From Candidatus Thorarchaeota archaeon (lineage in GTDB: Archaea; Asgardarchaeota; Heimdallarchaeia; Hodarchaeales; Hodarchaeaceae): DNA of 32,000 nt. The notes below the pieces were generated by a model, which did no database searches, was not told where the DNA came from, and worked only from the letters and a program-made list of their open reading frames with translations. The translations under genes and the position numbers were made by a program. How positions within the stretch are numbered: the first letter of the stretch is position 1; each line of letters opens with the position of its first letter. Below, in pieces: positions 4,800-20,102 of this stretch. Location of the stretch: contig JBHLRO010000006.1 of the NCBI GenBank assembly GCA_048882505.1, positions 1 to 32,000 on the forward strand, read 5' to 3'.

Positions 4800-4932
4800 G
4801 AATCCAAATGGTTTAACTAAAAACAATAGAGGACAATTATGATTTAAAGAATGTGGGTATCGTACCCACTTGAATTCTCGTCCTCAAAACCAAATAATTG
4901 TAGTTATATACGGAATATGGGAAAATTCGATT

Positions 4933-6024
4933 ATGAAAGGTGTGGTAAGAGTACTAGTGGTAGATGATTCTGCAGTAGCTAGGCAAACGATTTCCAGGAT
5001 AATCAGCGAAAGTAATAAAGCCATTGAAGTGGTGGCAACAGCCCCTAATGGAAAAATCGCCTTGGAAAAGATGCCTATCCCTAAATTTAAACCCGATGTT
5101 GTCACTATGGACATTATGATGCCTGAGATGGATGGTTTTGAAACTATAGGCCATATAATGGATCGATTTCCTACCCCCGTAATAATTGTTTCTGCCCTAA
5201 GCCACAAGGACATCGACGCTGCCCTTTCAAACTCTGGTATGACTGCGTTCGAATCTGGAGCAGTAGAATTTGTAAAGAAACCAAACCCTCAGGTTTCATC
5301 TGACGAAAAACGTTTTAAGAGAGAATTGATTGACAAAATCATCAATCTATCGGAAACCAATTTACCACAGGCTCTGAGGGGGTTTGATTTCAAATCCTTT
5401 CTTAAGGAGGATGAAATGCCAAAGCCTATCGTAACACGGGAAACTAAAAGAACAGTGAAAGGATTTCATGAGACGCTAATTGTCATCGGTGCCTCTACGG
5501 GTGGCCCGAGAGCTGTCTCACTAATTCTATCTAAAATCCCTCCTGTTTTTCCTCCAATAATTGTTGTCCAGCATATGCCTGAGGAGATGGTGGAATCCTG
5601 GGCCAAAAGGTTACAAAGTTTATATCCTCATTTGAAAATCAAAATCCCCAGTGACAAGGAGTTCATAGAGCCCAATCGTGTTTATATAGCACCAGGGGGC
5701 AGGCATTGTGCCGTGAAAGATGGAAGGAGATTTCATTTGCATAATGGACCCAAAGTGAATTTTCTCAGGCCTGCCATAGATGTTACTCTCATTTCCGCTT
5801 CTGAAGTATATCGTGAAAATATTCTTGGAGTAATTCTCACCGGGATGGGAAAGGATGGATATGAGGGAGCAAAGAGAATAAAGGCGATAGGAGGAAAAAT
5901 TTTCGCAGAACATGAATCCACATGTGTGATTTATGGAATGCCCAAAGTCATAATAGAGGGTGGATTGGCAGATCGGGTTGCGCCATTACACACCATTCCA
6001 GCTATCATTCTCGGTCAAAACTAG
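4933..6024 (+). CDS. cheB: Chemotaxis response regulator / protein-glutamate methylesterase CheB
   Basis: Receiver domain (VLVVDDS, TMDIMMPEMDG, FVKKP) plus methylesterase triad GASTGG (Ser), VQHMP (His), LTGMGKDG (Asp). ATG at 4933 preferred over TTG at 4870. Confidence 0.97.
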   Translation: MKGVVRVLVVDDSAVARQTISRIISESNKAIEVVATAPNGKIALEKMPIPKFKPDVVTMDIMMPEMDGFETIGHIMDRFPTPVIIVSALSHKDIDAALSNSGMTAFESGAVEFVKKPNPQVSSDEKRFKRELIDKIINLSETNLPQALRGFDFKSFLKEDEMPKPIVTRETKRTVKGFHETLIVIGASTGGPRAVSLILSKIPPVFPPIIVVQHMPEEMVESWAKRLQSLYPHLKIKIPSDKEFIEPNRVYIAPGGRHCAVKDGRRFHLHNGPKVNFLRPAIDVTLISASEVYRENILGVILTGMGKDGYEGAKRIKAIGGKIFAEHESTCVIYGMPKVIIEGGLADRVAPLHTIPAIILGQN

Positions 6025-6293
6025 AAAAACTTGATCTTACCAAGCAATCCTAGCGTGTCTATCCCTTCGGATTGGGATTAACTTACCAAGGTACACCCTA
6101 ATGGACTTCGTGTACTTTTAGGGGTTTGGGGTTCGAAGATTTGGCTGGCCATTAAACCATTGATAGTATATGAGTAACCACCGATCGCCCTAGAGTTAGG
6201 ATCCCACTTTTTCCATATTTTTTTCCCAATGCCTTTCAAGTTGGAAAGAGTATTACAAATCAAACCATAAAGTTCAGAGAGGAAAAATCGAAA

Positions 6294-8234
6294 ATGGGAC
6301 TGCTTAAATTTCTAGATAATATTAAGGTTTCAAATAAACTTATTGGAACATTCTTTATAGTGGCATGTATTTCTGGCGTTGTAGGAATATTTGCAACGGT
6401 CCAGATCAACGGATTGAATACTTCGATAAAGGAGATTGTAGAAGTAAATGTAGAACAGGCAGATTGGTCAATGGAATCCATAATTGCAGTAGAATCCCAA
6501 ATTATGACCATCCACGCGTCTATGCTTGGAGAAACGGAGGCACGCGACGAATTCATTGAAGCTCATAACAAAGTGATGGATGGATTCCATAATTTGACCG
6601 TGCTTCTCAAAGGGACTTCACAGGAAACCGCTGTAACTGCCCTAGAAACACAATACCACAGCTTCCATATGGCCTGCAATGGTACTTCAGGGGTGTTTGA
6701 TTCAACAATTAAATATGAGGAGGCAAAAAGCGTAGCTGATACCCAATACTGGGCGCTGGATCAGCTTGAAGATGAAACGGACGAAAAATTAGCCTCATTG
6801 GAAGAATTAGTGACTGCCTATGCGTTGGATAATGCATTGACCCCTAATGCTACTCTCTCGGACAATGCAATGGAGCTTAATCTCATTGTGTGGAGGATGG
6901 TTGACCGAGCACGAATGTATATGGCAGTGCCATTGGATTATAGCCTCGAGAATAACAATACGCGAGAACAATTGCGTAATGAGTATGCCGATGAAATCTC
7001 AATCCTTGCTGAAACTGATTTCGTCCAATCTGGTCTTGAAAAAGACTTCACTGATCTATTGGGCCAGGCAGAAGCAAATTTTCAATGGGCACTTGCCAAT
7101 GGTTCGATGAACACTACAGCCTTAACCATCCTTGAAGATGTCCGGACTAGGGTCGTATTTAATTCGAGCAATCAGAATACGAGTCTTGCTGATGCCGTCC
7201 GGAGTCAGGAGGACGGGGTTTTTGTCAAACAAGATACACTCGTGGCTAATTGGGTCGCTGCTACTGATGCTATGGAAACTGCTGACTCGTTAGGGTCATC
7301 ATTACAAGCCGATCTTGAAGTTCTGGAGCTGTGGGTTGGAGACCAGTTGGATTTGGCAAAGATGGCCGCTGCACAGTCATTTAATGATGCCATCCTCTTT
7401 ATTCCCGTACTTACAGTTGTCGCGATCGTGATTGGGGCGCTATCCGGTTATTTCCTATCTAGATCGATAACCAATCCGCTTTCGAGGGTCGTTACAACCT
7501 CGGTTGAAGTTGCAAAGGGGAACCTGAAAGTAGATACTGAAGGAATAGATCGGAGAAGGAAAGATGAGATTGGGCAATTAGGTAGTTCCTTTGGAACCAT
7601 GATTGACGTGGTCATTTCACTGATAAAACAGGTTCAAATGACCGCTGAAATGGTTGCTTCAGCGTCCGAGGAATTAGCTTCAACATCAGAAGAGGTGAAT
7701 GCGCTATCAGAGGAAATCGCAGCAACAATTCAGCAGGTGAGCAGAGGCGCCTCAAACCAATCGGATTTGGCTACAAAATCAATGGATGATATTTTTAAAA
7801 TGTCCGAAGTAGTGGACCGATCACTTCACGACATAGAAGGGATATTACAGGTCATAGAAGACATAGCAGGGCAGACAAACATATTGGCCTTGAATGCCGC
7901 CATCGAGGCTGCTCGTGCTGGGGATTATGGCCGTGGTTTTGCCGTTGTATCCGATAATGTACGACGTTTGGCCGAAGAGACGAAAACAAACGCGGCGAAC
8001 ATAAGCACACTTACTGACAAGATTGTTTCCAATATCGGCGGAAACATCACTTCACTTCAAGAATCATTACAGAGTTTTGCCGCCCAGTCAGAAGAATTTA
8101 GTGCCTCCAGCGAACAAGTAGCATCAGCCGCAGAGCAGCAAACAGCGGCGATGAATCAACTTACGACCGCTGCTCAAGATTTAACCAAAATGAGCGAAAG
8201 CTTAGCCAATGAAATATCTGAATTCAAAACCTAA
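6294..8234 (+). CDS. Methyl-accepting chemotaxis protein (TM1 - large extracellular helical sensor - TM2 - HAMP - short signalling domain)
   Basis: TM1 near residues 15-38, TM2 [27 protein letters not shown] (ITNPL...[10 protein letters not shown]), hairpin [26 protein letters not shown], methylation-type heptads ([21 protein letters not shown]; [18 protein letters not shown]). Confidence 0.96.
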
Positions 8235-8280
8235 GAGAGTCATAACTCAGAATGCGAAGGAAAAAGGGTTTTGTGGTACA

Positions 8281-9000
8281 ATGGATACCGACGAGCGACT
8301 ACCCGAAGACATAGAGGATAACCTAGAAGAAAAACAGGATCCGCTCCTCAACGTCCAGGAGATTCTCCTCCTTAATAAGAAGAGCGGACTCCCAGTTTTT
8401 TCTAGGGTTTATAAAGAAACATCAGGGAAGGATCCCACTTTGATTGCTGGATTAATGGCTGCTATTGTTCAGTTCGGCGAAATGATAGGACATAATATGG
8501 AGTTAAATGACATCGGAGTACGAGAAGGCTCTCGTATATTCGTCCGAAGCCAAAAAAACCTGGTATGCTTACTAACGATCACTAATTTCCCTATATCTTT
8601 TTTAACCACTCGAAAATTTATTGAGATCGTTGATGATCTGGCCTCACGCATCTTTGAAACCATCCGAATGCTCGCATCATTGCCAATGTATGAAAACGGC
8701 GGATTGATCGAAGAGATCAGCTTTGATATAACTGATGAGGCATTAGAGGAAAATAAGGCTTCTATTTTTCCACAACTAGGAAAAACTGTCGACAATATTG
8801 TCATGGAGACAACTGCAACCTTATTTGTCGATGAGGGTGAAATAGAGGAGGAACTCAACGTTATGGAAGAGACTAATTCAACTTATCTCGGTTCCGAATA
8901 TTCCGGGACTTCTAACGATATTATTAATCCGATTTCATCAAATTTCAATAGAATGATGAAGAATTTCAGGAGATTATTGAAAAACTCTCTAAGGGAATGA
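8281..9000 (+). CDS. Longin-like domain protein with acidic linker and C-terminal amphipathic helix
   Basis: QEILLLNKKSGLPVFSRVY...DPTLIAGLMAAIVQFGEMIG..ELNDIG...RIFVRS..LVCLLTI matches the beta-beta-alpha-beta-beta-beta pattern of longin domains as seen in Asgard archaea. ATG at 8281 preferred over 8209, which overlaps the MCP. Confidence 0.7.
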   Translation: MDTDERLPEDIEDNLEEKQDPLLNVQEILLLNKKSGLPVFSRVYKETSGKDPTLIAGLMAAIVQFGEMIGHNMELNDIGVREGSRIFVRSQKNLVCLLTITNFPISFLTTRKFIEIVDDLASRIFETIRMLASLPMYENGGLIEEISFDITDEALEENKASIFPQLGKTVDNIVMETTATLFVDEGEIEEELNVMEETNSTYLGSEYSGTSNDIINPISSNFNRMMKNFRRLLKNSLRE

Positions 9001-9007
9001 TTTCTCA

Positions 9008-9757
9008 ATGTCGGCAATTCTACAACAATCTAGCACATATGTGATATTTCAAGTTTCAGACGACTCATACGGGATAGGAGTTGACTATTTAAAGGAAGTG
9101 ATCCAAACGGATAAGATTTTGAAACTTCCTCGCACTTCGGAGGCCCTTACAGGTATTATCAACCTTCGTGGTTATATTTTAAGCGTATTTGATCTCTTTG
9201 GTCTGCTTTGGAAATCTGGCCGTACTAGTCCGAATAATGACTCGCAAGATAATGCTCACAAACAATACACCATTCTTGTGAGTTCTATCCAAGACAAAGA
9301 TCTAGGAATTTTGGTGGACCATGTTCATCAACTTACAGAGGTTAATGAATTTAGGGAGGTAAAACGATCTGACTTTCACGGAAGAGATCTAGTCAATCCC
9401 TCATTTATAACACAGGTGGGTATATTAGACAAGACAAAAAAGATCTTCATTATTGATATGGAGAACGTTCTCGGTAATTATTTCACGATTGTTAGATCTC
9501 CAGAAGGTACGGCGTCTACGAAAGAAGATTTCGATTTTGACCTTAATCAATTTACTTTGCCCGATGAGGAACCCGTAGCCGATCTATCCGATCAGATAAT
9601 TTCAGGGATCCTTGTTGAGAATGAAAAAGGGGAAAAAAACAGAGAAGGTCATTCTAATGCCAAAAAAACAACCCGAAATGAATCTAAAACTACAGATTCA
9701 GATAAAAAAATAGTTAAGGGTGAAGAAAAGAAAAAAAAGTCAAGAAAAAAGGAATAA
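9008..9757 (+). CDS. cheW: Chemotaxis coupling protein CheW with long charged C-terminal tail
   Basis: YVIFQV...YGIGVDYLKEVI...LPRTSEALTGIINLRGYILSVFDL...LGILVDHV. The last ~90 aa are low-complexity, acidic then Lys-rich. Confidence 0.92.
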   Translation: MSAILQQSSTYVIFQVSDDSYGIGVDYLKEVIQTDKILKLPRTSEALTGIINLRGYILSVFDLFGLLWKSGRTSPNNDSQDNAHKQYTILVSSIQDKDLGILVDHVHQLTEVNEFREVKRSDFHGRDLVNPSFITQVGILDKTKKIFIIDMENVLGNYFTIVRSPEGTASTKEDFDFDLNQFTLPDEEPVADLSDQIISGILVENEKGEKNREGHSNAKKTTRNESKTTDSDKKIVKGEEKKKKSRKKE

Positions 9758-9803
9758 CCACGAACTAGACAGATAGAGGATAAAACGCAATCAAATTGAT
9801 ATA

Positions 9804-12080
9804 ATGGTGATAACGATTACCTACTCTAACTCCACCCAGCGAGCAAGGCCCAGATCAGAACCAAAAGATGATTTATTACTTTTTACTTTACAAGGGGACA
9901 AATACGCGGTTATAACCTTTGATGTCATTCAAATCGTTAAGAATCTCTCTATTAGCCCCATTGTAGACTGTACTCCGTATATGATTGGTTCAACGGCCAT
10001 CCACGGTGAAATTCTACCGGTAATCGATCTTCAAACCTTTTTCTACGGTAAAGGTTCATCACTGACTGAAGCTACCGCTGATAAAGAGCAAATCTTTATT
10101 ACGATCGGCCATCATGGAGAACACGCTGTATTTAAAGTAGAAACAGTGCTGGGAACCATTAAGAGACCCAAAAACGCGCTTGCACCAAACCTTGCCAACT
10201 TTTTTGATCTGGGGGAGGTAAACTATTTTGACGGGGCGTTTATTAGAAATTCGGAATTAATTGTTCAACTAGGATACGACAAGATTTTAGAACAGATTAC
10301 TTCTGATTTGGATGAATTTTATAATCAATTTAAGGCTGAGAATAAAGTTCGTACCATTCCTGTGGAGTCATTGGCCTCCAGAGAGGAATATAACATAGAA
10401 CTCCAATCGAATCTCTCCGTACCAGCTACAACAGTTGAATGGAAGATAAATCGTTTGGTTCATTCCGCCCATAAGGATAGATTTTCTGGAATGGTAATAT
10501 CAGTTCAAAATTTAGCCGTAATGGTTCCAAGTGATTATATCATAGAAATTTACAAGGTTCCGAACCTTACAAAAATCCCAAATACCTCTAGATCAATCGT
10601 CGGAGCGATAAGTTACCGTGGTGAGATTTTAAACGTCATAGACTTGTCAGAGCTTCTAAACATCATTCGGGATAACCAGAAAGAGCTAGGAGATGAATTC
10701 CTTGAAAATCAAACGGCCCTAATTCTTGAATTTGAGGATCGGAGGATTGCAATTTTCGTGGACGAGATTCAGAAGATTATCGAAATCGATAAAACTGAAA
10801 TCAAAGGCACTATCATACCCCAGAGCTCCAGTGAAGGAAGTTATCCATTTGAGGGGGTATTCCTGGATAGCCTTGGGCAGATTTACCCCGTGTTGAATGT
10901 CGGCCATCTGTTTACTGGATACTTTAATCCAAAGGCCTTGGAACAGAAGGACAATGATATTATTTTTTTTGAAAATCTTGTGGCTGATTCTTCACAACTG
11001 ATCCAAGAATCCATGCACGAGGGGTTGGTTTTCGAAGACGCAGGCATTTTCTTTTTTATTGACTCACACTTTATCGTTCAAGCTATCCGGCAAGAGACTT
11101 TTCTACTTAAAACTCACACACATTTTGCTATACTAGGAGCGACAATTCATCGGAATATTGTACCTATCATCGATTTTTTTTACCTTCTAAGCGGCATCAG
11201 ATCAAAACGCGAAAAAAAGGAAGAGTCAGTTGGAATTATTGTGGGTGCTTCTGATAGCGGCTTTGAAGCGGCTTTTGTGGTTGATAATGTCATAGAAAGA
11301 TTAAATGTTCGTAAATTAGATGTATTTCAAGTAGAAAAGGATTTTACATCAAAAACAGTGTCTCCAATTATTTCAGGATTCTTTTCCTATCATGGAAATC
11401 TCGGATTGATAATAAATCCATCTGCCTTAATTGAAGAAACATCGATTCTTTTAACGAGTAATCTGGGGCTTGAGGACATCAAAAACGACTTTATTTCGAC
11501 CCTCCTACCTGAGGAAATAGAATATCTGGAGGCATTTCAAGCTCGCAGAAAGGAACTAGAATTACTGCTATTTTCAGATAAACGAAGTGTCAAACTAGAC
11601 TACTTTGTCTTTAAATGGGGAGAACAGGCCTTTGCCATTGACGTGAATCTGGTACGCGGAGTTTTTGGCTCACTTCATGCTCAGAGCGTCGGTTTAGAAT
11701 ACCATCCAATCATAGGCGTTATCACAACTGAGAATGGAACGCAGCCCATTCTTGATTTAGAGGCTCTTATTCTAAATATCGATACAAAAAATAGCCTAAA
11801 CCTTAATAACGACTTCTTCTCCTTATGCTGCGATGAAAGGTTGTTTATTATTCCTGTTGATAGTTTGGAGGGAGTAATAACCACATTTAAAGACGAGATA
11901 CAACCGTGTAGAGATCCTAGTATCTTTTTAGGGGGAGAGGAGTGTTGTAAATATCAGTTTTCTTATGAAAAGGGTCAATTTTCAACGAATATAATTGAAA
12001 ATGATTTCTTAGCAAAAATAATTGTTCAAAGGGGAATAGATATGCTCCTAGGCAAATTACCACTTGATAAATCGAAATAG
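9804..12080 (+). CDS. Multi-domain CheW protein (four tandem CheW-like domains)
   Basis: Four CheW signatures: IGSTAIHGEILPVIDL (approx. aa 22-160), VGAISYRGEILNVIDL (approx. 225-372), LGATIHRNIVPIIDF (approx. 405-548), IGVITTENGTQPILDL (approx. 598-742). Each is preceded by an 'lvF..g...ai....v..i' strand and followed by a 'VD/VE.v' strand. Confidence 0.85.
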   Translation: MVITITYSNSTQRARPRSEPKDDLLLFTLQGDKYAVITFDVIQIVKNLSISPIVDCTPYMIGSTAIHGEILPVIDLQTFFYGKGSSLTEATADKEQIFITIGHHGEHAVFKVETVLGTIKRPKNALAPNLANFFDLGEVNYFDGAFIRNSELIVQLGYDKILEQITSDLDEFYNQFKAENKVRTIPVESLASREEYNIELQSNLSVPATTVEWKINRLVHSAHKDRFSGMVISVQNLAVMVPSDYIIEIYKVPNLTKIPNTSRSIVGAISYRGEILNVIDLSELLNIIRDNQKELGDEFLENQTALILEFEDRRIAIFVDEIQKIIEIDKTEIKGTIIPQSSSEGSYPFEGVFLDSLGQIYPVLNVGHLFTGYFNPKALEQKDNDIIFFENLVADSSQLIQESMHEGLVFEDAGIFFFIDSHFIVQAIRQETFLLKTHTHFAILGATIHRNIVPIIDFFYLLSGIRSKREKKEESVGIIVGASDSGFEAAFVVDNVIERLNVRKLDVFQVEKDFTSKTVSPIISGFFSYHGNLGLIINPSALIEETSILLTSNLGLEDIKNDFISTLLPEEIEYLEAFQARRKELELLLFSDKRSVKLDYFVFKWGEQAFAIDVNLVRGVFGSLHAQSVGLEYHPIIGVITTENGTQPILDLEALILNIDTKNSLNLNNDFFSLCCDERLFIIPVDSLEGVITTFKDEIQPCRDPSIFLGGEECCKYQFSYEKGQFSTNIIENDFLAKIIVQRGIDMLLGKLPLDKSK

Positions 12081-12093
12081 AGGATTGATGCAT

Positions 12094-12453
12094 ATGGCTA
12101 CAGTGCTAATTGTTGATGATTCGAAGTATTTACGATTGATGATAAGCAAGATCCTGAAAAAACGCGGTCATACAATTGTAGCTGAAGCTTCCACTGGTGT
12201 GGAAGCAATAGGACAATTTAAACAATTTTTGCCAAACGTTGTGACCATGGATGTCGTTATGCCTAAGATGAACGGTTTGTTGGCTATTAAGGAAATTATA
12301 GCAATGAATCCGAATGCCAATGTCGTCGTTGTTACAGCTCTTGGTCACGAACCTCTTGTTCGTCAAGCGTTGAAACTTGGCGCAAGGGATTTCGTTATTA
12401 AACCATTTAAGGTTGAACAGCTTGTTCAGGCAGTTGAAAACGTTCTCAAATGA
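12094..12453 (+). CDS. cheY: Chemotaxis response regulator CheY
   Basis: Stand-alone receiver: VLIVDDS, TMDVVMPKMNG (phospho-Asp), VTALG, GARDFVIKPF. Located directly upstream of cheA. ATG at 12094 preferred. Confidence 0.95.
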   Translation: MATVLIVDDSKYLRLMISKILKKRGHTIVAEASTGVEAIGQFKQFLPNVVTMDVVMPKMNGLLAIKEIIAMNPNANVVVVTALGHEPLVRQALKLGARDFVIKPFKVEQLVQAVENVLK

Positions 12454-12513
12454 GCTTTTTGGAAATCTATGCGAAAATTGACATTAGCTGGTCTAAAAGA
12501 AGGTAGGAATATA

Positions 12514-14415
12514 ATGGACGAATCGGAATCCAAAGAGTTTCAGGAAGTTATGCTGTTAGAACTAACTGAACGAATTGAGGATTTGAATACGGGACTATTG
12601 GCGTTAGAAAAAGATCCTACGAAAAAGACCGCGTTTGACGCCGTTCTTCGAACGCTACATAGTTTAAAGGGCCTCTTCTCATTGTCGGGATATCCACAGC
12701 TTAGCTCAATAACTCATAGCTTGGAGAACCTAGTGCTTTCCACAGATATGACGGGGATGGAAAAGCTAGTTACTCTACTTTTTCAGTATAACGATCAACT
12801 AAGCGAACTAGCTAGTACAATCAGGGGCGGTAAAAACCCTGAGTCGATTCATTTTGATCAATTGACCCAGCAACTAGCGGCCTTTGACGAGTTCATGGTA
12901 AATTTGGGAAATAAACTTCGTATCAGTGTTCTGTTCAGTCCCGAATGTAAAGTCGTAGGCGCACGTAGCCTAGTTCTCCTCCAAAGGTTGAAGGAAAAGG
13001 CAGCCATTGAGCGAACCATGCCCCCCCAAGAAGAAATTCAAGCAGGAGTCTCGTTCAAGGAGTTAATTATAGAAATTTCGACTCAAGAGGACGATGAAAC
13101 AATTGCCCAAATAGTGGAAGAAAGCCAGGATGTCATGAGCGCCTCGGTCTCTCGACTCCTCGATTCGGTCAGTACTACGGAAAAATTAGGTGGGACTAAA
13201 GATTCTCGGGAATCATTGACCGTGAGAGTCAATTTGGAGAGTTTGGATCAAATTATCAGATTCTTGGGTGATTTAGTGATATCAGGCCAGTTCATTCGAG
13301 AAATCGGAAAGCAACAGGCTTATTCGCGGTCATTCAAGGAAAACCTCGCGATGTATGAGCGTACGATTGCGAACATCCAAGATTTAGTAATTAGAATGCG
13401 CTTAGTTCCTCTGGAAACCATTTTTACTCGTTTTCCCCGGATGATTCGAGATTTAAGCCACAAGGAAGGCAAAAAAATTAACTTTATCATGACAGGTAAG
13501 CATATTGGCGTTGATCGTTCTGTTATTGAGCAACTTGTGAACCCTATTACGCATTTACTCAGAAATGCGGTCAGTCACGGAATAGAAGCGCCAGAAAAGA
13601 GACTTAAAACGAACAAAGATTCCACTGGGACCGTTAAACTAGCGGTAACGCACGAACGTTCCGATATAGTGATTGAAATCTGGGATGACGGGAAGGGAAT
13701 TGATTATAAAAAGATCGAGAAGAAAGCCGAGGAATTGGGTCTTGTGAATCCAGGGGCACTTCTAACAAATCACGAAATCCAGCAATTACTTTTTACTGAA
13801 TATATTTCGACTGCAAGCGAAACTACCGAAGTGGCTGGAAGAGGAATCGGCTTGAATATTGTAAAGGACATTATTACGAGCAATGGGGGAGCGATTGAGC
13901 TTGACTCTAAACCAGGACAATATACCTCTGTACGTTTGATCATTCCGATTTCCGTAGCTATTACAAAGGTTTTATTGATAAGCGTTAAGAATCAGCATTT
14001 CGCGCTCCCCATGGTCAACGTGGAACAGATACTTTCTGTTCCCATCAATAAAATTCTTGTTGATGCTAAAACTACCTCCAGATCTATCGTTGTAGAAAAT
14101 ACCTCTGTTCCGCTGGTCGATTTACGTGAGCGTTTGAAGTTTAATACAACAGATACAACCAAAAGAAACGATATGCAAACTGGAGCGAAGGAGCGGAACC
14201 GACAGAATGAAATCGTGGTATTATGGCGCAAAGGATCTCGTAGTTTAGGATTCCTAGTCAATGATCTTCTGGGAGAAAGGGAAGTGGTTGTGAAACCAAT
14301 TCATAACTTTCTCAGCCAACTAGGGGCTTTCTCTGGTGCAACTGTGTTGGAAGGGGGCCAGGTTGTACTGATAATTGAACCCATGAATTTTCTAGAGGCA
14401 AAAGGTCATGCGTAA
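12514..14415 (+). CDS. cheA: Chemotaxis histidine kinase CheA (P1-P2-P3-P4-P5)
   Basis: Hpt LHSLKG; P2 domain of the Bacillus/Thermotoga/archaeal type (ISVLFSPECKVVGARS...); dimerisation domain TVRVNLESLDQII; RNAVSHGIE; WDDGKGID; GRGIGL; C-terminal CheW-like P5. ATG at 12514 preferred over 12469. Confidence 0.97.
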   Translation: MDESESKEFQEVMLLELTERIEDLNTGLLALEKDPTKKTAFDAVLRTLHSLKGLFSLSGYPQLSSITHSLENLVLSTDMTGMEKLVTLLFQYNDQLSELASTIRGGKNPESIHFDQLTQQLAAFDEFMVNLGNKLRISVLFSPECKVVGARSLVLLQRLKEKAAIERTMPPQEEIQAGVSFKELIIEISTQEDDETIAQIVEESQDVMSASVSRLLDSVSTTEKLGGTKDSRESLTVRVNLESLDQIIRFLGDLVISGQFIREIGKQQAYSRSFKENLAMYERTIANIQDLVIRMRLVPLETIFTRFPRMIRDLSHKEGKKINFIMTGKHIGVDRSVIEQLVNPITHLLRNAVSHGIEAPEKRLKTNKDSTGTVKLAVTHERSDIVIEIWDDGKGIDYKKIEKKAEELGLVNPGALLTNHEIQQLLFTEYISTASETTEVAGRGIGLNIVKDIITSNGGAIELDSKPGQYTSVRLIIPISVAITKVLLISVKNQHFALPMVNVEQILSVPINKILVDAKTTSRSIVVENTSVPLVDLRERLKFNTTDTTKRNDMQTGAKERNRQNEIVVLWRKGSRSLGFLVNDLLGEREVVVKPIHNFLSQLGAFSGATVLEGGQVVLIIEPMNFLEAKGHA

Positions 14416-15061
14416 CGACAAGAATCAGTTTGGAAATCTGACTGAACTACAGCTTGATGCACTCCAAGAAGTAGGTAACATTGGTGCCGGTCATGCAGCA
14501 ATCGGTTTAACGCAATTTCTGAACCGATCAACATATATGAGCATTCCAAATGTGGCCCTCGACAACCTTCAAGCTATTTCTAGATTAGTCAAGATGCCTG
14601 GGGATCAAGATGTCGCGATCATTTCTTTACATACAATTAGTGATCTCCTGTATACCCTATTGGTTTTTTTTAATGGAGAAAGCGTTCGAAAGATCATTAA
14701 ACTGATGACTGTAACAACCAGCGTTGACAGTGAAGACCTATACGACATTTCTCCACTCTTCCTGTCGTTAATCAAAGAAACTGGTTCAATTCTCCTGTTA
14801 AAATATGTAGAAGCTTTGAATTACTTTTTGAAAGCTAATTCTTTCCCATCACCGCCGCGACTTCGAATCGGTACCATTGCTTCCCTCACTCAGAATGAAC
14901 TGAAGGATGTAATTCAAAATCTATCAACGGTCCTAGTAATTGAATGTGACATTTTTACCTCAGCAAAAAGCATCGCAATCGATTTAGTGATCGTTCCCCG
15001 TCTTGAGACGTTTGACCAGTTTATGCAGAAGTTGTTTTCAAAGGATACCGAAGATTATTAG
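14408..15061 (+). CDS. cheC: CheY-P phosphatase CheC
   Basis: DALQEVGNIGAGHAA...SIP is a canonical D/S-X3-E-X2-N-X22-P site. The second site is SLIKETGS-X22-P. 8-nt overlap with cheA. Confidence 0.93.
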   Translation: MRNDKNQFGNLTELQLDALQEVGNIGAGHAAIGLTQFLNRSTYMSIPNVALDNLQAISRLVKMPGDQDVAIISLHTISDLLYTLLVFFNGESVRKIIKLMTVTTSVDSEDLYDISPLFLSLIKETGSILLLKYVEALNYFLKANSFPSPPRLRIGTIASLTQNELKDVIQNLSTVLVIECDIFTSAKSIAIDLVIVPRLETFDQFMQKLFSKDTEDY

Positions 15062-15096
15062 AGATTTCATTTTTTAGTCTCTGAGGAAACCAGGCG

Positions 15097-15648
15097 ATGC
15101 GAGACCGTTCTTTCCAAGATGCTTTTTTAAATGATCCCAATCTCAAGGTGAACTATATCGAGATAGGTGAAATCTGCCTTGGCTATAATAACGATCTGCT
15201 TATAATTTCGGCCCTTGGATCTTGTGTAGGACTTACGATTTATCCCAAAAATCAGGTAGAATTGGATCGATGTGCCATAATGGGACATATAATGTTGCCA
15301 TTCTCCTCAAAAAGAGATAGTCATAAGTTAAAAAAGGCCAGATTCTCTCCTGCAAAATATGCGGATCGTGCAGTTCCAACTATGGTTGAAAAATTGGAAA
15401 ACTTAGGATTTAATAGAAAACATCTGGAAGCTAAAATGGTAGGTGGGGCAAAAATGTTTGGTTTCTTGTCAGACTCCTTGGATGTCGGAAAGAATAATAT
15501 AGATGCAACTAAAGTTCAGCTTCGTTCCTTTGGCATTCCCCTGGTAGGACAATATACGGGGGGCGCAACTGGTATGAAGGTAGTTTTTCATGTAAGGGAT
15601 TATAAATTGATTGTTACTCCAACAAAAGGGTCTCCAATGTTTATATAA
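15097..15648 (+). CDS. cheD: Chemoreceptor glutamine deamidase CheD
   Basis: ALGSCVG (catalytic Cys), GHIMLP (His), KYAD, AKMVGGAKMF, VGKNN. Confidence 0.95.
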   Translation: MRDRSFQDAFLNDPNLKVNYIEIGEICLGYNNDLLIISALGSCVGLTIYPKNQVELDRCAIMGHIMLPFSSKRDSHKLKKARFSPAKYADRAVPTMVEKLENLGFNRKHLEAKMVGGAKMFGFLSDSLDVGKNNIDATKVQLRSFGIPLVGQYTGGATGMKVVFHVRDYKLIVTPTKGSPMFI

Positions 15649-15858
15649 CTGGATCCAATGATTTATTTACGTTTGGTGGCATAGGAAATTAAGAATAAGA
15701 AATTTGGGAATGAAACCAGTTCGGAGGTAAACTCTACAAAAATCATTGAATTCCTTCGACAAAACGGATTTGATTTTAATCCCAATGATAAGAAAAGAAT
15801 TCTCAACCGTTTAAGGTTTGCAGCGATCTCCCTAGGCCTCAAGGACTGGAATGATCTT

Positions 15859-16881
15859 TTGAGTCACCTTAAATCAGACCGGAAAACCTATGAGAATATA
15901 TTTATGTGGTTAGAGAAGGGACGAACCTATCACGAGGCAGATCAATCGTTTGCACCCCTGTTAAAACGTAGGAAATCCCTAAAGGAGTACGTAGAGTCTT
16001 CTCAAAGGAAGTCCAAGAAAAAACAAAAGAAAAAAACAAAGATACTTCCAAATATAGATGTTTCTTTTGTTGGTCTTCCTCCCCCTGATCCAAAGAATCT
16101 ATCTTTGATTGTGGATTTTCTTTTACTAAAAAAAGTCAATTACGGCGCTTATAAGCCGAATTACTTTCTTAGACGATTGCAGGCTCGTATGAAAAGGGTT
16201 AATGCTGACACATACCAGGAATACCATACGATGCTGCGTACGGATTCTAGGGAGCTTGAACTGCTTCTAGACAGTTTTTCGATCAATGTCACTCATTTTT
16301 TTCGCGATAAAGAGTTGTTTGCACAATTAGAACGCGAGATAATTCCCCGAATATTTAGCGATAAGCGGGGATCCATTAGAATTTGGAGTGCAGGCTGTGC
16401 CATCGGTCCTGAACCTTATAGCATTGCCATTCTTATAGATAGCATTGAGCAAAAGAAAAGAATAGGCAAAGTTTTTCTTCTCGCTACGGATGTTAACATA
16501 GATCTTCTCAATCAGGCCAAAGAAGGAGTATTTGATAAGGAACTTCTAAAAGAAACTGATCCATTAAAGATTGCAAAATATTTTACACCTGTTAGCGCCA
16601 ATTTATTTTGTCTGGATTCTCAAATTAGAAAAATGGTGACGTTTCAGCAGCATGATTTGCGCTCGCCCCCGCCAGCACGTAATCTCGACCTAATCCTATG
16701 CCGTAACGTAATAATTTATTTTTCACGGCCCCAGGGGGAAAAGCTTTTTCGCAGATTTTATTCTGCTCTAAAACCTAATGGATATCTCATTCTAGGAAAA
16801 TGTGAAATTCTCCCGCAATCGATACGAAACAAATTTGAGATCATCAACACTCAAAATCGCATTTATAGACGTGTGAATTGA
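15859..16881 (+). CDS. cheR: Chemotaxis protein methyltransferase CheR (reading frame open from 15685; true start probably upstream of 15859)
   Basis: FSINVTHFFRD, IWSAGCAIGPEPYSIA, ATDVN, QHDL, DLILCRNVIIYF, LKPNGYLILG. The frame has no stop back to 15685 and encodes an extra CheR-N-like domain there. Confidence 0.95.
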   Translation: MSHLKSDRKTYENIFMWLEKGRTYHEADQSFAPLLKRRKSLKEYVESSQRKSKKKQKKKTKILPNIDVSFVGLPPPDPKNLSLIVDFLLLKKVNYGAYKPNYFLRRLQARMKRVNADTYQEYHTMLRTDSRELELLLDSFSINVTHFFRDKELFAQLEREIIPRIFSDKRGSIRIWSAGCAIGPEPYSIAILIDSIEQKKRIGKVFLLATDVNIDLLNQAKEGVFDKELLKETDPLKIAKYFTPVSANLFCLDSQIRKMVTFQQHDLRSPPPARNLDLILCRNVIIYFSRPQGEKLFRRFYSALKPNGYLILGKCEILPQSIRNKFEIINTQNRIYRRVN

Positions 16882-17723: not shown

Positions 17724-19511
17724 CTATTGATCATTCGTGAATAAATCAATTCCCCTCGGCGTCAGATCCACTTCTTTTCGCCTTCCTTTTCCAGTGATCC
17801 TTATGTAACCTGCAATGGACAGGTTCCCGATTCTCTTCCTAGCGGTTGGTCTGCTTATCTGTAGACGATCGCTTATATGTTTATAAGACGGTTTAATCCC
17901 CAAATTGTTTTGTCTGTATACGAATCTCAAAATCTCAACAAAGTCATCAGGAAGACTCGCGATAAACCTAGTGTCTATTCGTTTGGTTTCTTGCTCAAGC
18001 AATCGAAATTCTTCCTTATTTAAAGTCGAAGCGTCAATACAGAGAATGATTATTGAATTATATAGATATGCGATCTCTTTCAATTTACATACGAAAAGTA
18101 GAATGTTGTTGAATCCCTCGTGTGCCACAAGGTAGTCCATACGTTCTAGGAGGATAACGCTTTTAGCTGGCATCCCAGTAATAGTCACTTCGATTTCTTT
18201 AATGATTGTGGATGGATCATTATTCCAGATACAATTGGTCGCCATTTGAGCGAGCCATAAAAACTCATAGTTTCCTTCCAAGTCTCTTCTATAAACCTCT
18301 TCCGGAGTTCTAGAGATAGCTAGGCCCGAATAGCCTGTTTTCATGATATCACTAAAAACTGACTTGGCAAAGACTGGTTTTGTTTCCTCCACAAGATAAA
18401 CTTCTCCTTCTTGTATATTGAACTTCATCAAATGACTTTGTTTTTGAGCTTCAGCGGATTTGCGGGCAGAAATATCTCGATAATAAACAAGGGTAAAAAG
18501 CTCGCCTGACCTTTCAATAATTATCCCTCTGGCTTCGACTGGGATTATTTTTCCTTTCTTTGTGAGGAGAGCTGTTTCTCCGATGTAACATCTGCCATGT
18601 GTTGATACTCTTTTGATAAGCTCTTTTATTCTCTGATACTGGTTAATAGGGTGTAGATATTGCCATGAAAAGGTTGTTAGTTCCTCCTTATTATAACTTA
18701 GAAGTTCAGCCGTTGTTTTGTTAACATCAGCAATGTTGCCGTGTCTATCGAAAATCACTATGGCATCAAAAGAAGAATCAAATAAAAGCAGAAAATTACG
18801 GTCAACCTCCTTTAGGGATTGTGTGGTTTTTTCTTTCAATCTTTTTGTCAATAATTCTACCGTTTTGTTTTGCGTTTTCATGTAGTTTAATTCAAGTGTT
18901 AAATAAAATTCAGGATTAATGGGATGTGTTGAGGAGATTTTGGGATTAAAATATATGTTGGTATAAGATTCTGTCCCCAAAATGACAGTTGGATGTGAAA
19001 TTAAGACTCCGCGAAGTACGTGGGCATTAAAGCATTTACGGTCGTATTGGCAAAGAGATATGAACTTACCCCAAGGGAAAAACTTCGTAAGCCTCATCTC
19101 GTACTCAATTAGTCTTTCAGAGCCAATATTTGTTCGTAAGGCCCACGTCATTTCGCCAGTAAAACGTAAGGCCGCATAACCTTGATCTATGGCTTTTTCA
19201 GTCTCAATTCGTAGAGCTGCAATTATCCTTTTGATGTTTAACTCACCCTCCAGAGCCCAAATTTGGTCAGCTGAAACCACGGAGAGTTGTCCTTGATCGA
19301 TATACCTCTCACCATTCACTCCAATTTCACATAGATAACCCAGAACCTCCTCGGGGTCGTGACGGTCCGTAATATACAATATCCTCTCATCGTGCTCCAA
19401 TCCATCATAGATGAAACCAGTTGCGACGATTCGATGTTCGTTTTCTGTTTCATACAACCAGAGGGTATGGTCTCCCGCGCCTAATTCAGGGGATATTGAA
19501 GCTTTTGACAT
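17724..19511 (-). CDS. One-component regulator: MEDS - PAS - DUF835 - winged HTH
   Basis: MEDS (GDHTLWLYE...LRFTGEMTWAL...LIEYE...LCQYD...HPTVI); PAS (FDSSFDAIVIFD...VNKTTAELLSY); DUF835 (YLVEE...GLAISR...VILLERMDYL); C-terminal HTH-wing (PSYKHISDRLQISRPTARKRIGNL...LTPRG). ATG at 19511 preferred over 19550. Confidence 0.85.
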   Translation of the reverse strand: MSKASISPELGAGDHTLWLYETENEHRIVATGFIYDGLEHDERILYITDRHDPEEVLGYLCEIGVNGERYIDQGQLSVVSADQIWALEGELNIKRIIAALRIETEKAIDQGYAALRFTGEMTWALRTNIGSERLIEYEMRLTKFFPWGKFISLCQYDRKCFNAHVLRGVLISHPTVILGTESYTNIYFNPKISSTHPINPEFYLTLELNYMKTQNKTVELLTKRLKEKTTQSLKEVDRNFLLLFDSSFDAIVIFDRHGNIADVNKTTAELLSYNKEELTTFSWQYLHPINQYQRIKELIKRVSTHGRCYIGETALLTKKGKIIPVEARGIIIERSGELFTLVYYRDISARKSAEAQKQSHLMKFNIQEGEVYLVEETKPVFAKSVFSDIMKTGYSGLAISRTPEEVYRRDLEGNYEFLWLAQMATNCIWNNDPSTIIKEIEVTITGMPAKSVILLERMDYLVAHEGFNNILLFVCKLKEIAYLYNSIIILCIDASTLNKEEFRLLEQETKRIDTRFIASLPDDFVEILRFVYRQNNLGIKPSYKHISDRLQISRPTARKRIGNLSIAGYIRITGKGRRKEVDLTPRGIDLFTNDQ

Positions 19512-20102
19512 CTCAGAAGTTTTTTTTTGGAGAGAGTGATTTTCAATCAAACTTATTCCCTATGAAAACAAAGTTTGTCATCAGCTATAATTCGGCTATA
19601 AATTATAGATATAGAATTTTTTCATAAAAACGATATGATTTAGTTTTTTATATTAAAATACAGTGATCATTTAAAAATATATCATTATACCTCCCCCACA
19701 TGGCAAGCATTTAAGCCACCTGTCATAATGTCGTCCTTAATATTCCAAAACGAGAATTTCTTCTAATCAGGGGTCGAGTTTAAGCGAAAATTTGCGAAAA
19801 AACAAAAAGATTAAGAGATTTCAAAACTTACCGAAGTGATTTTCGTAACTAGTTCCGACGCCCGTCAAGAGTAGTTCATTTAACTAGATTTCCTTGTTTC
19901 TTAGTAAAGAATTCTTATTTTCAAAGGCTTGAAAATTCAGGAACTTCTTACGATCCAATCTTCACATCTTGGAAGCATTTAGGCAATATAAGAATATTCT
20001 TTCTCTCGAATGAATTTACAATCCAATTTCTGGCCAAATATGTGGGATTTCTACTACGTTAGAGGTTTTTTCCTTATTTCAGGAAAGTTACTAGAGAATA
20101 GG

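Follow-up and report, generated by a model that had tools for sequence, protein, structure and literature searches.

Chemosensory pathways of the F1 class, such as those of Bacillus subtilis, Thermotoga maritima and the motile Euryarchaeota, are built from a common set of che genes, including those for a P2-containing CheA and for CheC and CheD. The Frz pathway of Myxococcus xanthus acts on a polarity module composed of the Ras-like GTPase MglA and the Roadblock protein MglB. In Euryarchaeota, phosphorylated CheY (CheY-P) acts through the adaptor CheF on the ArlCDE switch (PMC9126983, PMC7534055); CheF consists of two PH-like platform domains and a tail that binds CheY-P (PMC9126983). Che genes have also been reported in 27 of 97 metagenome-assembled genomes of Loki- and Heimdallarchaeia, together with putative receptor arrays (PMC9834061). 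In this work we focused on a stretch of 32,000 nucleotides, hereafter called the window (positions 1-32,000 of contig JBHLRO010000006.1, assembly GCA_048882505.1), from Candidatus Thorarchaeota archaeon, a member of the Hodarchaeales. It bears a cassette of ten genes on the + strand within positions 4870-16881, nine of which are che genes; the tenth (8281-9000, 239 residues, + strand) lies between the receptor gene and cheW and is predicted to encode a longin-domain protein associated with them. As Asgard che genes are known, the new part is this lineage-specific longin component in an F1-like pathway.

We tentatively propose that the cassette is a functional and complete F1-like operon that does not act through CheF and an archaellum, and in which the longin protein reads CheY-P and passes the signal to a non-archaellar effector; our confidence in this proposal as a whole stands just short of even. 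A single membrane receptor, arranged by CheW and by a scaffold of four CheW domains, would control CheA, which would phosphorylate CheY, while CheR/CheB and CheC/CheD would provide adaptation and signal termination. These steps are assigned because they belong to the established knowledge of these families and the motifs concerned are intact. CheY-P would then be read by the operon's own longin protein, which would have the role of the euryarchaeal CheF, as a globular protein-interaction platform with a helical tail, and would relay the signal to an effector other than the archaellum. Candidate effectors are the small-GTPase control of actin-based protrusions or crawling and an ArlI/ArlJ-like type IV filament machine found throughout the class. 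A protein partner for CheY would be needed because the only receivers of the cassette are CheB and a CheY of 119 residues without an output domain.

The association of the longin gene with che genes was investigated in related genomes. The family is very narrow, with 21 matches at E<=1e-3 among 1.84 billion representatives. In 10 related loci the gene lies inside a cassette of the order CheB-longin-CheW-multiCheW-CheY-CheA-CheC-(CheD)-CheR; the flanking genes differ from locus to locus, and the cassette therefore moves as a unit. Within the genus, this order or the variant longin-CheB-CheW and so on was found in every locus with enough sequence. Of 22 congeneric genomes, 12 are che-positive and 10 che-negative; the longin gene is present in 11 of the 12 che-positive congeners, the contig of the twelfth ending at the expected site. 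More diverged members (E 1e-17) adjoin CheR and receiver genes. In each of the three genomes of family f6, CheD-CheC-CheA is followed by a member of 191-194 residues; in genome G163 the gene after CheC encodes two longin domains in tandem, and in genome G243 a member lies next to a receptor gene, about 9 kb downstream from CheD of the che cluster. In at least three families, longin members are thus part of che clusters or adjoin them. Across the 83 genomes of the class, and at E<=1e-8, the family was detected in 26 of the 30 genomes with CheA and in 5 of the 53 without it; four of these five carry other architectures, of either 132-150 or more than 550 residues. The same contrast is seen inside the genus, inside family f3 and when families are compared with one another. 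When the related loci were compared, the cassette contained no conserved unknown gene besides the longin gene. Gene neighbourhood and phyletic distribution in these genome sequences thus single out the longin family as a dedicated, lineage-specific che component.

One congener, G017, shows a different arrangement. Its che cluster (L037, G017:C123) reads CheB-CheW-multiCheW-CheY-CheA without a longin gene, which is found on another contig (L038, G017:C118:2035-2760); the neighbouring gene there, encoding 352 residues (L038:919-1977), is also a weak match to the longin profile.

The longin protein has no Pfam match even at an E value of 10, and its assignment rests on AlphaFold 2 models and their structural comparison, besides synteny and the phyletic link with che. 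The gene has an alternative upstream ATG at 8209, overlapping the receptor gene. Two models, built from 23 and 43 sequences, gave a mean predicted local distance difference test score (pLDDT) of 54 and 61 and a predicted template modelling score (pTM) of 0.46 and 0.60, respectively. In both, DSSP assigned the topology b-b-a-b-b-b-a-a, with a disordered insert (residues 136-160), and then two helices; the longin fold spans residues ~22-183, and the protein also bears a conserved S/T/Y-rich motif. An exhaustive VIA structural comparison placed about 40 longin domains on top, with Z scores from 14.0 to 8. The best matches were synbindin (Z 14.0, root-mean-square deviation 2.8, 120 aligned residues), sedlin (13.6), VAMP7 (12.4) and Sec22 (12.0), and the Lokiarchaeal Roadblock-longin protein 8yqg reached 11.0; SRX, FLCN/FNIP, Mon1-Ccz1, DENN and C9orf72-SMCR8 were matched as well. 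Foldseek returned only longin and Roadblock proteins, MglB included, with E values from 2e-4 to 8e-3. Two distant matches of the family profile, P0063 and P0069, hit the Pfam families Fuz_longin_1 and MAPKK1_Int, near the cut-off. The product of 8281-9000 is, according to these predicted models (pLDDT 54-61), a longin-fold protein. Like this protein, most members of the family end in a basic amphipathic helix, which we infer to bind the membrane. The conserved motif I-I-D-N-I-V-x-E was considered as a CheY-binding peptide resembling the EIDALL of FliM, and was discarded because the better model places this helix as alpha-3 of the longin fold.

A complex of CheY with the longin protein was predicted from the alignments of both in three runs, with ipSAE interface scores of 0.45, 0.38 and 0.43 (median 0.43), whereas none of three controls scored above 0.00. 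At least 66% of the contacts are shared between runs, and the pLDDT of the partner is 84. In the calibration of the procedure, 58 of 80 solved complexes passed the mark, as did 2 of 110 mismatched pairs; among these passes, only 7 of the 80 solved complexes but both mismatches scored <=0.60. We take the prediction as a hint, which lends weak support to binding.

The output through CheF and an archaellum was searched for in six frames over the whole genome, a draft of 4.32 Mb in 83 contigs with a completeness of 94.55% and a contamination of 3.7%. Homologues carry the names Hodarchaeales, Hodarchaeota, Heimdallarchaeota or Promethearchaeota, and a TFIIB gene confirms that the DNA is archaeal. 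CheF (PF04283) gave no match at E<=1 in the genome, and the same search matched the control genomes; for archaellin, ArlF and ArlG (PF01917) the genome yielded nothing better than E 0.05. ArlD/E (PF04659) and ArlH were searched for in this genome only: the former gave no match, and for the latter four single-domain KaiC-like ATPases scored at most 47 bits against a cut-off of 215. These ATPases were rejected as ArlH, the KaiC models (118-180 bits or less) matching them far better. Neither a bacterial flagellin nor FliM/N was found above cut-off in the genome. A closed congener, CP070695.1, consists of one contig of 4.94 Mb and shares the cassette; in it too neither CheF nor archaellin was found. 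Among the 24 species genomes of the order, CheA is present in 14, CheF in none and archaellin in none. Among 301 genomes sampled from the phylum, CheA was detected in 45, CheF (Pfam) in 0 and archaellin above cut-off in 2. Of the 83 genomes of the class, 30 have CheA, and the only ArlI above the curated NCBI cut-off is that of G163 (596 bits, cut-off 550).

The first-pass annotation, made on the window, had reasoned that the pathway must drive a different output if the genome also lacks cheF and arl genes, and had named a cheF gene with a full archaellum operon elsewhere in the genome as the finding that would overturn this. Neither turned up in the whole-genome searches, and the single ArlI above cut-off in a class with 30 CheA-positive genomes points the same way, so that its conditional argument gains support from this genome, from the closed congener and from the order. 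As far as family searches can tell, the canonical CheF/archaellum output is excluded for the whole order.

G163, another genome of the Heimdallarchaeia, has a genuine archaellum operon with archaellin, ArlG/F-like, ArlH, ArlI and ArlJ genes in a row. Our models are thus able to pick up an Asgard archaellum where there is one. The same genome has no CheF, and its che cluster includes a longin gene, which fits with the longin protein holding the place of CheF in Heimdallarchaeia. The G163 loci are L070:5-6092 (G163:C52) and L071:6719-11002 (G163:C79); its che cluster ends with the tandem-longin gene, and Pfam CheF is not matched in the genome.

Several points weigh against the proposal that the longin protein reads CheY-P. 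Its binding to CheY is predicted only, and the interface score lies in the range where passes were more often wrong than right. The structural models are of low to moderate confidence. The phyletic correlation is drawn over related and therefore non-independent genomes, and some rows of the profile A4 come from che loci. At E<=1e-8 no longin member was found in the che-positive genomes G024 and G303, nor in G020 and G115, the contigs of which stop where the gene would be expected. The che locus examined in G109 has no longin gene, and the only match of this genome is short, N-terminal and on another contig. Among 1851 candidates, no fused longer form of the longin protein that would name a partner was found, nor did the cassette or its flanks bear a GTPase gene in 20 loci. 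The longin protein could instead be an accessory of the array or of its localisation.

The likeliest alternative places the output in a type IV filament, CheY-P modulating its assembly, retraction or rotation either directly or via the longin protein. Pil-Chp and Tax systems act in this way on bacterial pili. On another contig, C15, the minus strand bears a run of genes (G000:C15:40072-48098, L010:6072-14098) encoding two pilin-like proteins, an ArlI-like ATPase of 502 residues, a split ArlJ-like platform, a coiled-coil protein of 150 residues and three pilin-like proteins. Five of the encoded proteins have N-terminal pilin-like hydrophobic segments, and a prepilin peptidase is encoded separately, on contig C18. 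Judged by its family matches, the locus is a core machine for a type IV filament, and it agrees with the "simple T4F" reported from some Heimdallarchaea (PMC13705601). Its completeness as a core machine favours this alternative, and so does its resemblance to archaellar motors: the ATPase scores best on the FlaI model (420-422 bits on NF058587, against 208 on BasE), and the two platform genes match the N- and C-halves of ArlJ/UpsF, on whose models they score best. The ATPase stays below the equivalog cut-off of 550, however, and no ArlI above it was found in this genome, G163 being the only one of the class to pass. The true archaellum of G163, accompanied by a che cluster with tandem longins and no CheF, would fit a longin adaptor to this motor superfamily, and cultured Hodarchaeales bear surface filaments (10.1101/2025.02.26.640444; PMC13705601).

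On the other side, neither ArlH, ArlF/G, ArlCDE/X nor archaellin was found in the genome, and the accessory proteins of the locus resemble the pilin-like DUF7288, DUF7289 and DUF7262 clusters of Thermoproteota and Bathyarchaeota. The ATPase is present whether or not che is: a version about 90% identical was found in 23 of the 24 genomes of the order, and the type in 78 of the 83 genomes of the class, with no specific co-occurrence of the che system and the filament machine. In the class, this ArlI-like ATPase (about 420 bits) is accompanied by a split ArlJ-like platform and by pilin-like genes. To our knowledge, no archaeal pilus is under Che control. We consider a filament output rather unlikely. 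The identity of about 90% across the order is unusually strong conservation for the motor of a surface filament.

In another explanation the longin protein serves the structure or the localisation of the receptor array as an accessory, for instance as a membrane anchor acting through its C-terminal helix, and CheY-P has an unlinked target or the system another cellular function. The basic amphipathic helix in most members and the position of the gene next to cheW and the multi-CheW scaffold speak for such a role. So does the single receptor of the genome, a situation common in non-motility Che-like systems, as well as the G109 locus described above. It leaves aside, however, that CheB and an output-less CheY, the only receivers, require some partner, that the weak complex signal is with CheY itself, and that the cassette offers no other conserved unknown gene for this task. 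An accessory role appears unlikely.

A more specific version of the proposed CheY-P reading by the longin protein would wire receptor, CheA and CheY through that protein to small GTPases steering the growth of actin-driven protrusions, and thereby crawling. Docking or regulation of small GTPases is a typical role of longin and Roadblock domains, and MglB, TRAPP, Mon1-Ccz1, FLCN and Ragulator are among the structural matches of the protein. The nearest GTPase island lies about 31 kb downstream on the same contig (G000:C6:47409-58298, L063:1409-12298), where genes for Ras-like, Arf-like, Rag-like and again Ras-like GTPases are interleaved with two-component genes. Hodarchaeales strain HC1 crawls by actin-dependent protrusions, in a paper that makes no mention of chemotaxis (PMC13716822). 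As a complete chain from receptor to protrusion, this route seems doubtful at present, well into the improbable range. GTPase-controlled actin and the type IV filament are both candidate targets, between which our analysis does not discriminate. The two-component genes of the island encode a GAF-PAS histidine kinase, a stand-alone receiver, a receiver with an unassigned C-terminal domain of 180 residues and a hybrid kinase. The C-terminal domain of this receiver protein (L063:8849-9748) was compared with the longin family as a possible relative and rejected, as hhalign found no similarity (probability 0.14).

Ordinary archaellar chemotaxis, with cheF and arl genes merely unassembled in a draft of 83 contigs or too divergent to detect, is very improbable: archaellum components and some CheF homologues do occur in a minority of Asgard genomes according to arCOG-based models (PMC13705601), but the single-contig congener with the cassette lacks detectable copies of both, as do all 24 genomes of the order, and models of the same types detect the archaellum of G163.

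The individual genes of the cassette were assigned by their Pfam domains. They all lie on the + strand and, from the receptor gene through cheD, overlap or are separated by gaps of less than 50 bp. The first encodes CheB, a methylesterase with a receiver and a catalytic domain (4933-6024; CheB_methylest 1.8e-54, Response_reg 3.9e-19); its longest open reading frame (ORF) begins at 4870, with 4933 as the likely start, and its orthologues adjoin the cluster in congeners. It is followed by the gene of the receptor, a methyl-accepting chemotaxis protein (6294-8234; MCPsignal 5.2e-33, HAMP, 4HB_MCP_1), and, after the longin gene, by cheW (9008-9757; CheW 1.2e-17), the gene of the concatenated CheW scaffold of 758 residues (9804-12080; four stretches matching CheW) and that of CheY, a stand-alone receiver (12094-12453, in an ORF starting at 12064; Response_reg 2.3e-28). 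CheA (12469-14415) comprises domains P1, with the phospho-histidine H64, to P5 (Hpt, P2, H-kinase_dim, HATPase_c and CheW), and its gene is followed by those of the phosphatase CheC (14408-15061; CheC 3.3e-07), CheD (15097-15648; CheD 7.8e-25) and the methyltransferase CheR (15859-16881; CheR 1.2e-50, CheR_N).

The first-pass annotation had listed all core genes with both adaptation systems, CheR/CheB and CheC/CheD, and its inventory agrees with the Pfam domains found for each; it had omitted the conserved longin gene between the receptor gene and cheW. It had also described the catalytic motifs as intact apart from substitutions in CheC and CheA. In CheA we find H64 kept within an HSLKG motif, and in CheY the conserved residues D8, D9, D53, T81 and K103. 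The first active site of CheC is canonical, and the second reads S-x3-E-x2-S, with N replaced by S at its end.

The receptor is the only one of the genome, which contains a single match to PF00015. It comprises a first transmembrane segment, an ectodomain of ~330 residues rich in N-x-S/T sequons, a second transmembrane segment, a HAMP domain and a short signalling domain. The ~208 residues that follow HAMP look too short for the 44 heptads usual in F1 receptors. CheW (9008-9757) ends in a Lys-rich C-terminal tail; this tail of about 90 residues is first acidic and then strongly rich in lysine, and the length of CheW varies from 190 to 321 residues among congeners. The scaffold has a period of ~195 residues, and our own hidden Markov model finds four domains in it and four or six in its relatives, so that these concatenated CheW proteins come in two sizes, with four domains (~750 residues) or six (~1145 residues). 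The genes compared were that of the window (9804-12080), L013:11674-15126, L029:7102-10539 and L040:5431-8859. In receptor arrays, the rings made of CheW only consist of six CheW. Multi-CheW proteins may thus form single-chain rings or act as staples of the lattice, and such four- and six-domain scaffolds are of interest for how receptor arrays are built.

The remainder of the window encodes a PAS histidine kinase, a coiled-coil protein, a MEDS-PAS-DUF835 protein, TFIIB, aldo-keto reductases and several unknowns. No other ORF of the 32 kb matched CheF or any arl/fla family, as had been noted from the letters of the window. The PAS kinase, the coiled-coil protein, the MEDS-PAS-DUF835 protein and an ORF of 129 residues were examined as parts of the cassette and rejected, since they are not conserved next to it in congeners. 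The MEDS-PAS-DUF835 protein, with a possible C-terminal winged helix, is encoded next to the cassette on the minus strand (17724-19550), and is likewise not conserved beside che in congeners.

These results give the Asgard che genes and arrays (PMC9834061) a concrete candidate output link in the longin protein, and a testable route from chemical sensing to crawling or to the class-wide type IV filament. Hodarchaeales are among the closest known archaeal relatives of eukaryotes, and longin is the fold with which eukaryotes regulate their Rab, Rag and Arf GTPases. Were the GTPase and actin route true, it would represent a prokaryotic forerunner of the directed cell migration of eukaryotes. Full-text literature searches combining longin, chemotaxis and Asgard returned no paper on a che-linked longin protein.

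Among described systems, the cassette is closest to the F1 class. Its gene content comprises a P2-containing CheA, CheW, CheY, CheB, CheR, CheC and CheD, all recognised by Pfam. The clade of its CheA consists of Hodarchaeales and Heimdallarchaeaceae at 47-70% identity, after which identity drops sharply to 28-32%; the nearest non-Asgard relatives, in this range, are P2-containing CheAs of Bacillota (Caloramator, Halanaerobium, Alkaliphilus) and of Methanoperedens. The F1-like assignment is based on this gene content and on these nearest CheA relatives, which would fit an F1-like origin. In contrast to F1 systems, no flagellum or archaellum and no CheF were found here in the genome; a four- or six-domain CheW scaffold and a longin gene are built into the operon, and it has one receptor with a short signalling domain. 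The che operons of Lokiarchaeia, which are published together with their arrays (PMC9834061), have a CheA of a different lineage, with ~30% identity to the one described here. Neither a gelsolin nor a GTPase gene was found in the Hodarchaeales cassette.

Like Frz, the cassette would be a Che-type pathway with a CheY-like output through a protein of the Roadblock/longin superfamily, as proposed here, and not through the switch of a rotary motor; the motility steered by Frz is surface-based. In contrast to Frz, no GTPase gene is linked to the cassette, and mglB, unlike the longin gene, is not part of a che operon. From the euryarchaeal chain of CheY-P, CheF and the ArlCDE switch (PMC9126983, PMC7534055) it differs in that ArlCDE, ArlH, ArlF/G and archaellin were not found in the genome, and in that a longin fold would stand where CheF has two PH-like domains, without sequence relation between the two. 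Both systems nevertheless have a stand-alone CheY in need of a protein partner, both carry the gene for the adaptor, here a proposed one, in the che operon, and in both this protein combines a globular platform with a helical C-terminal part.

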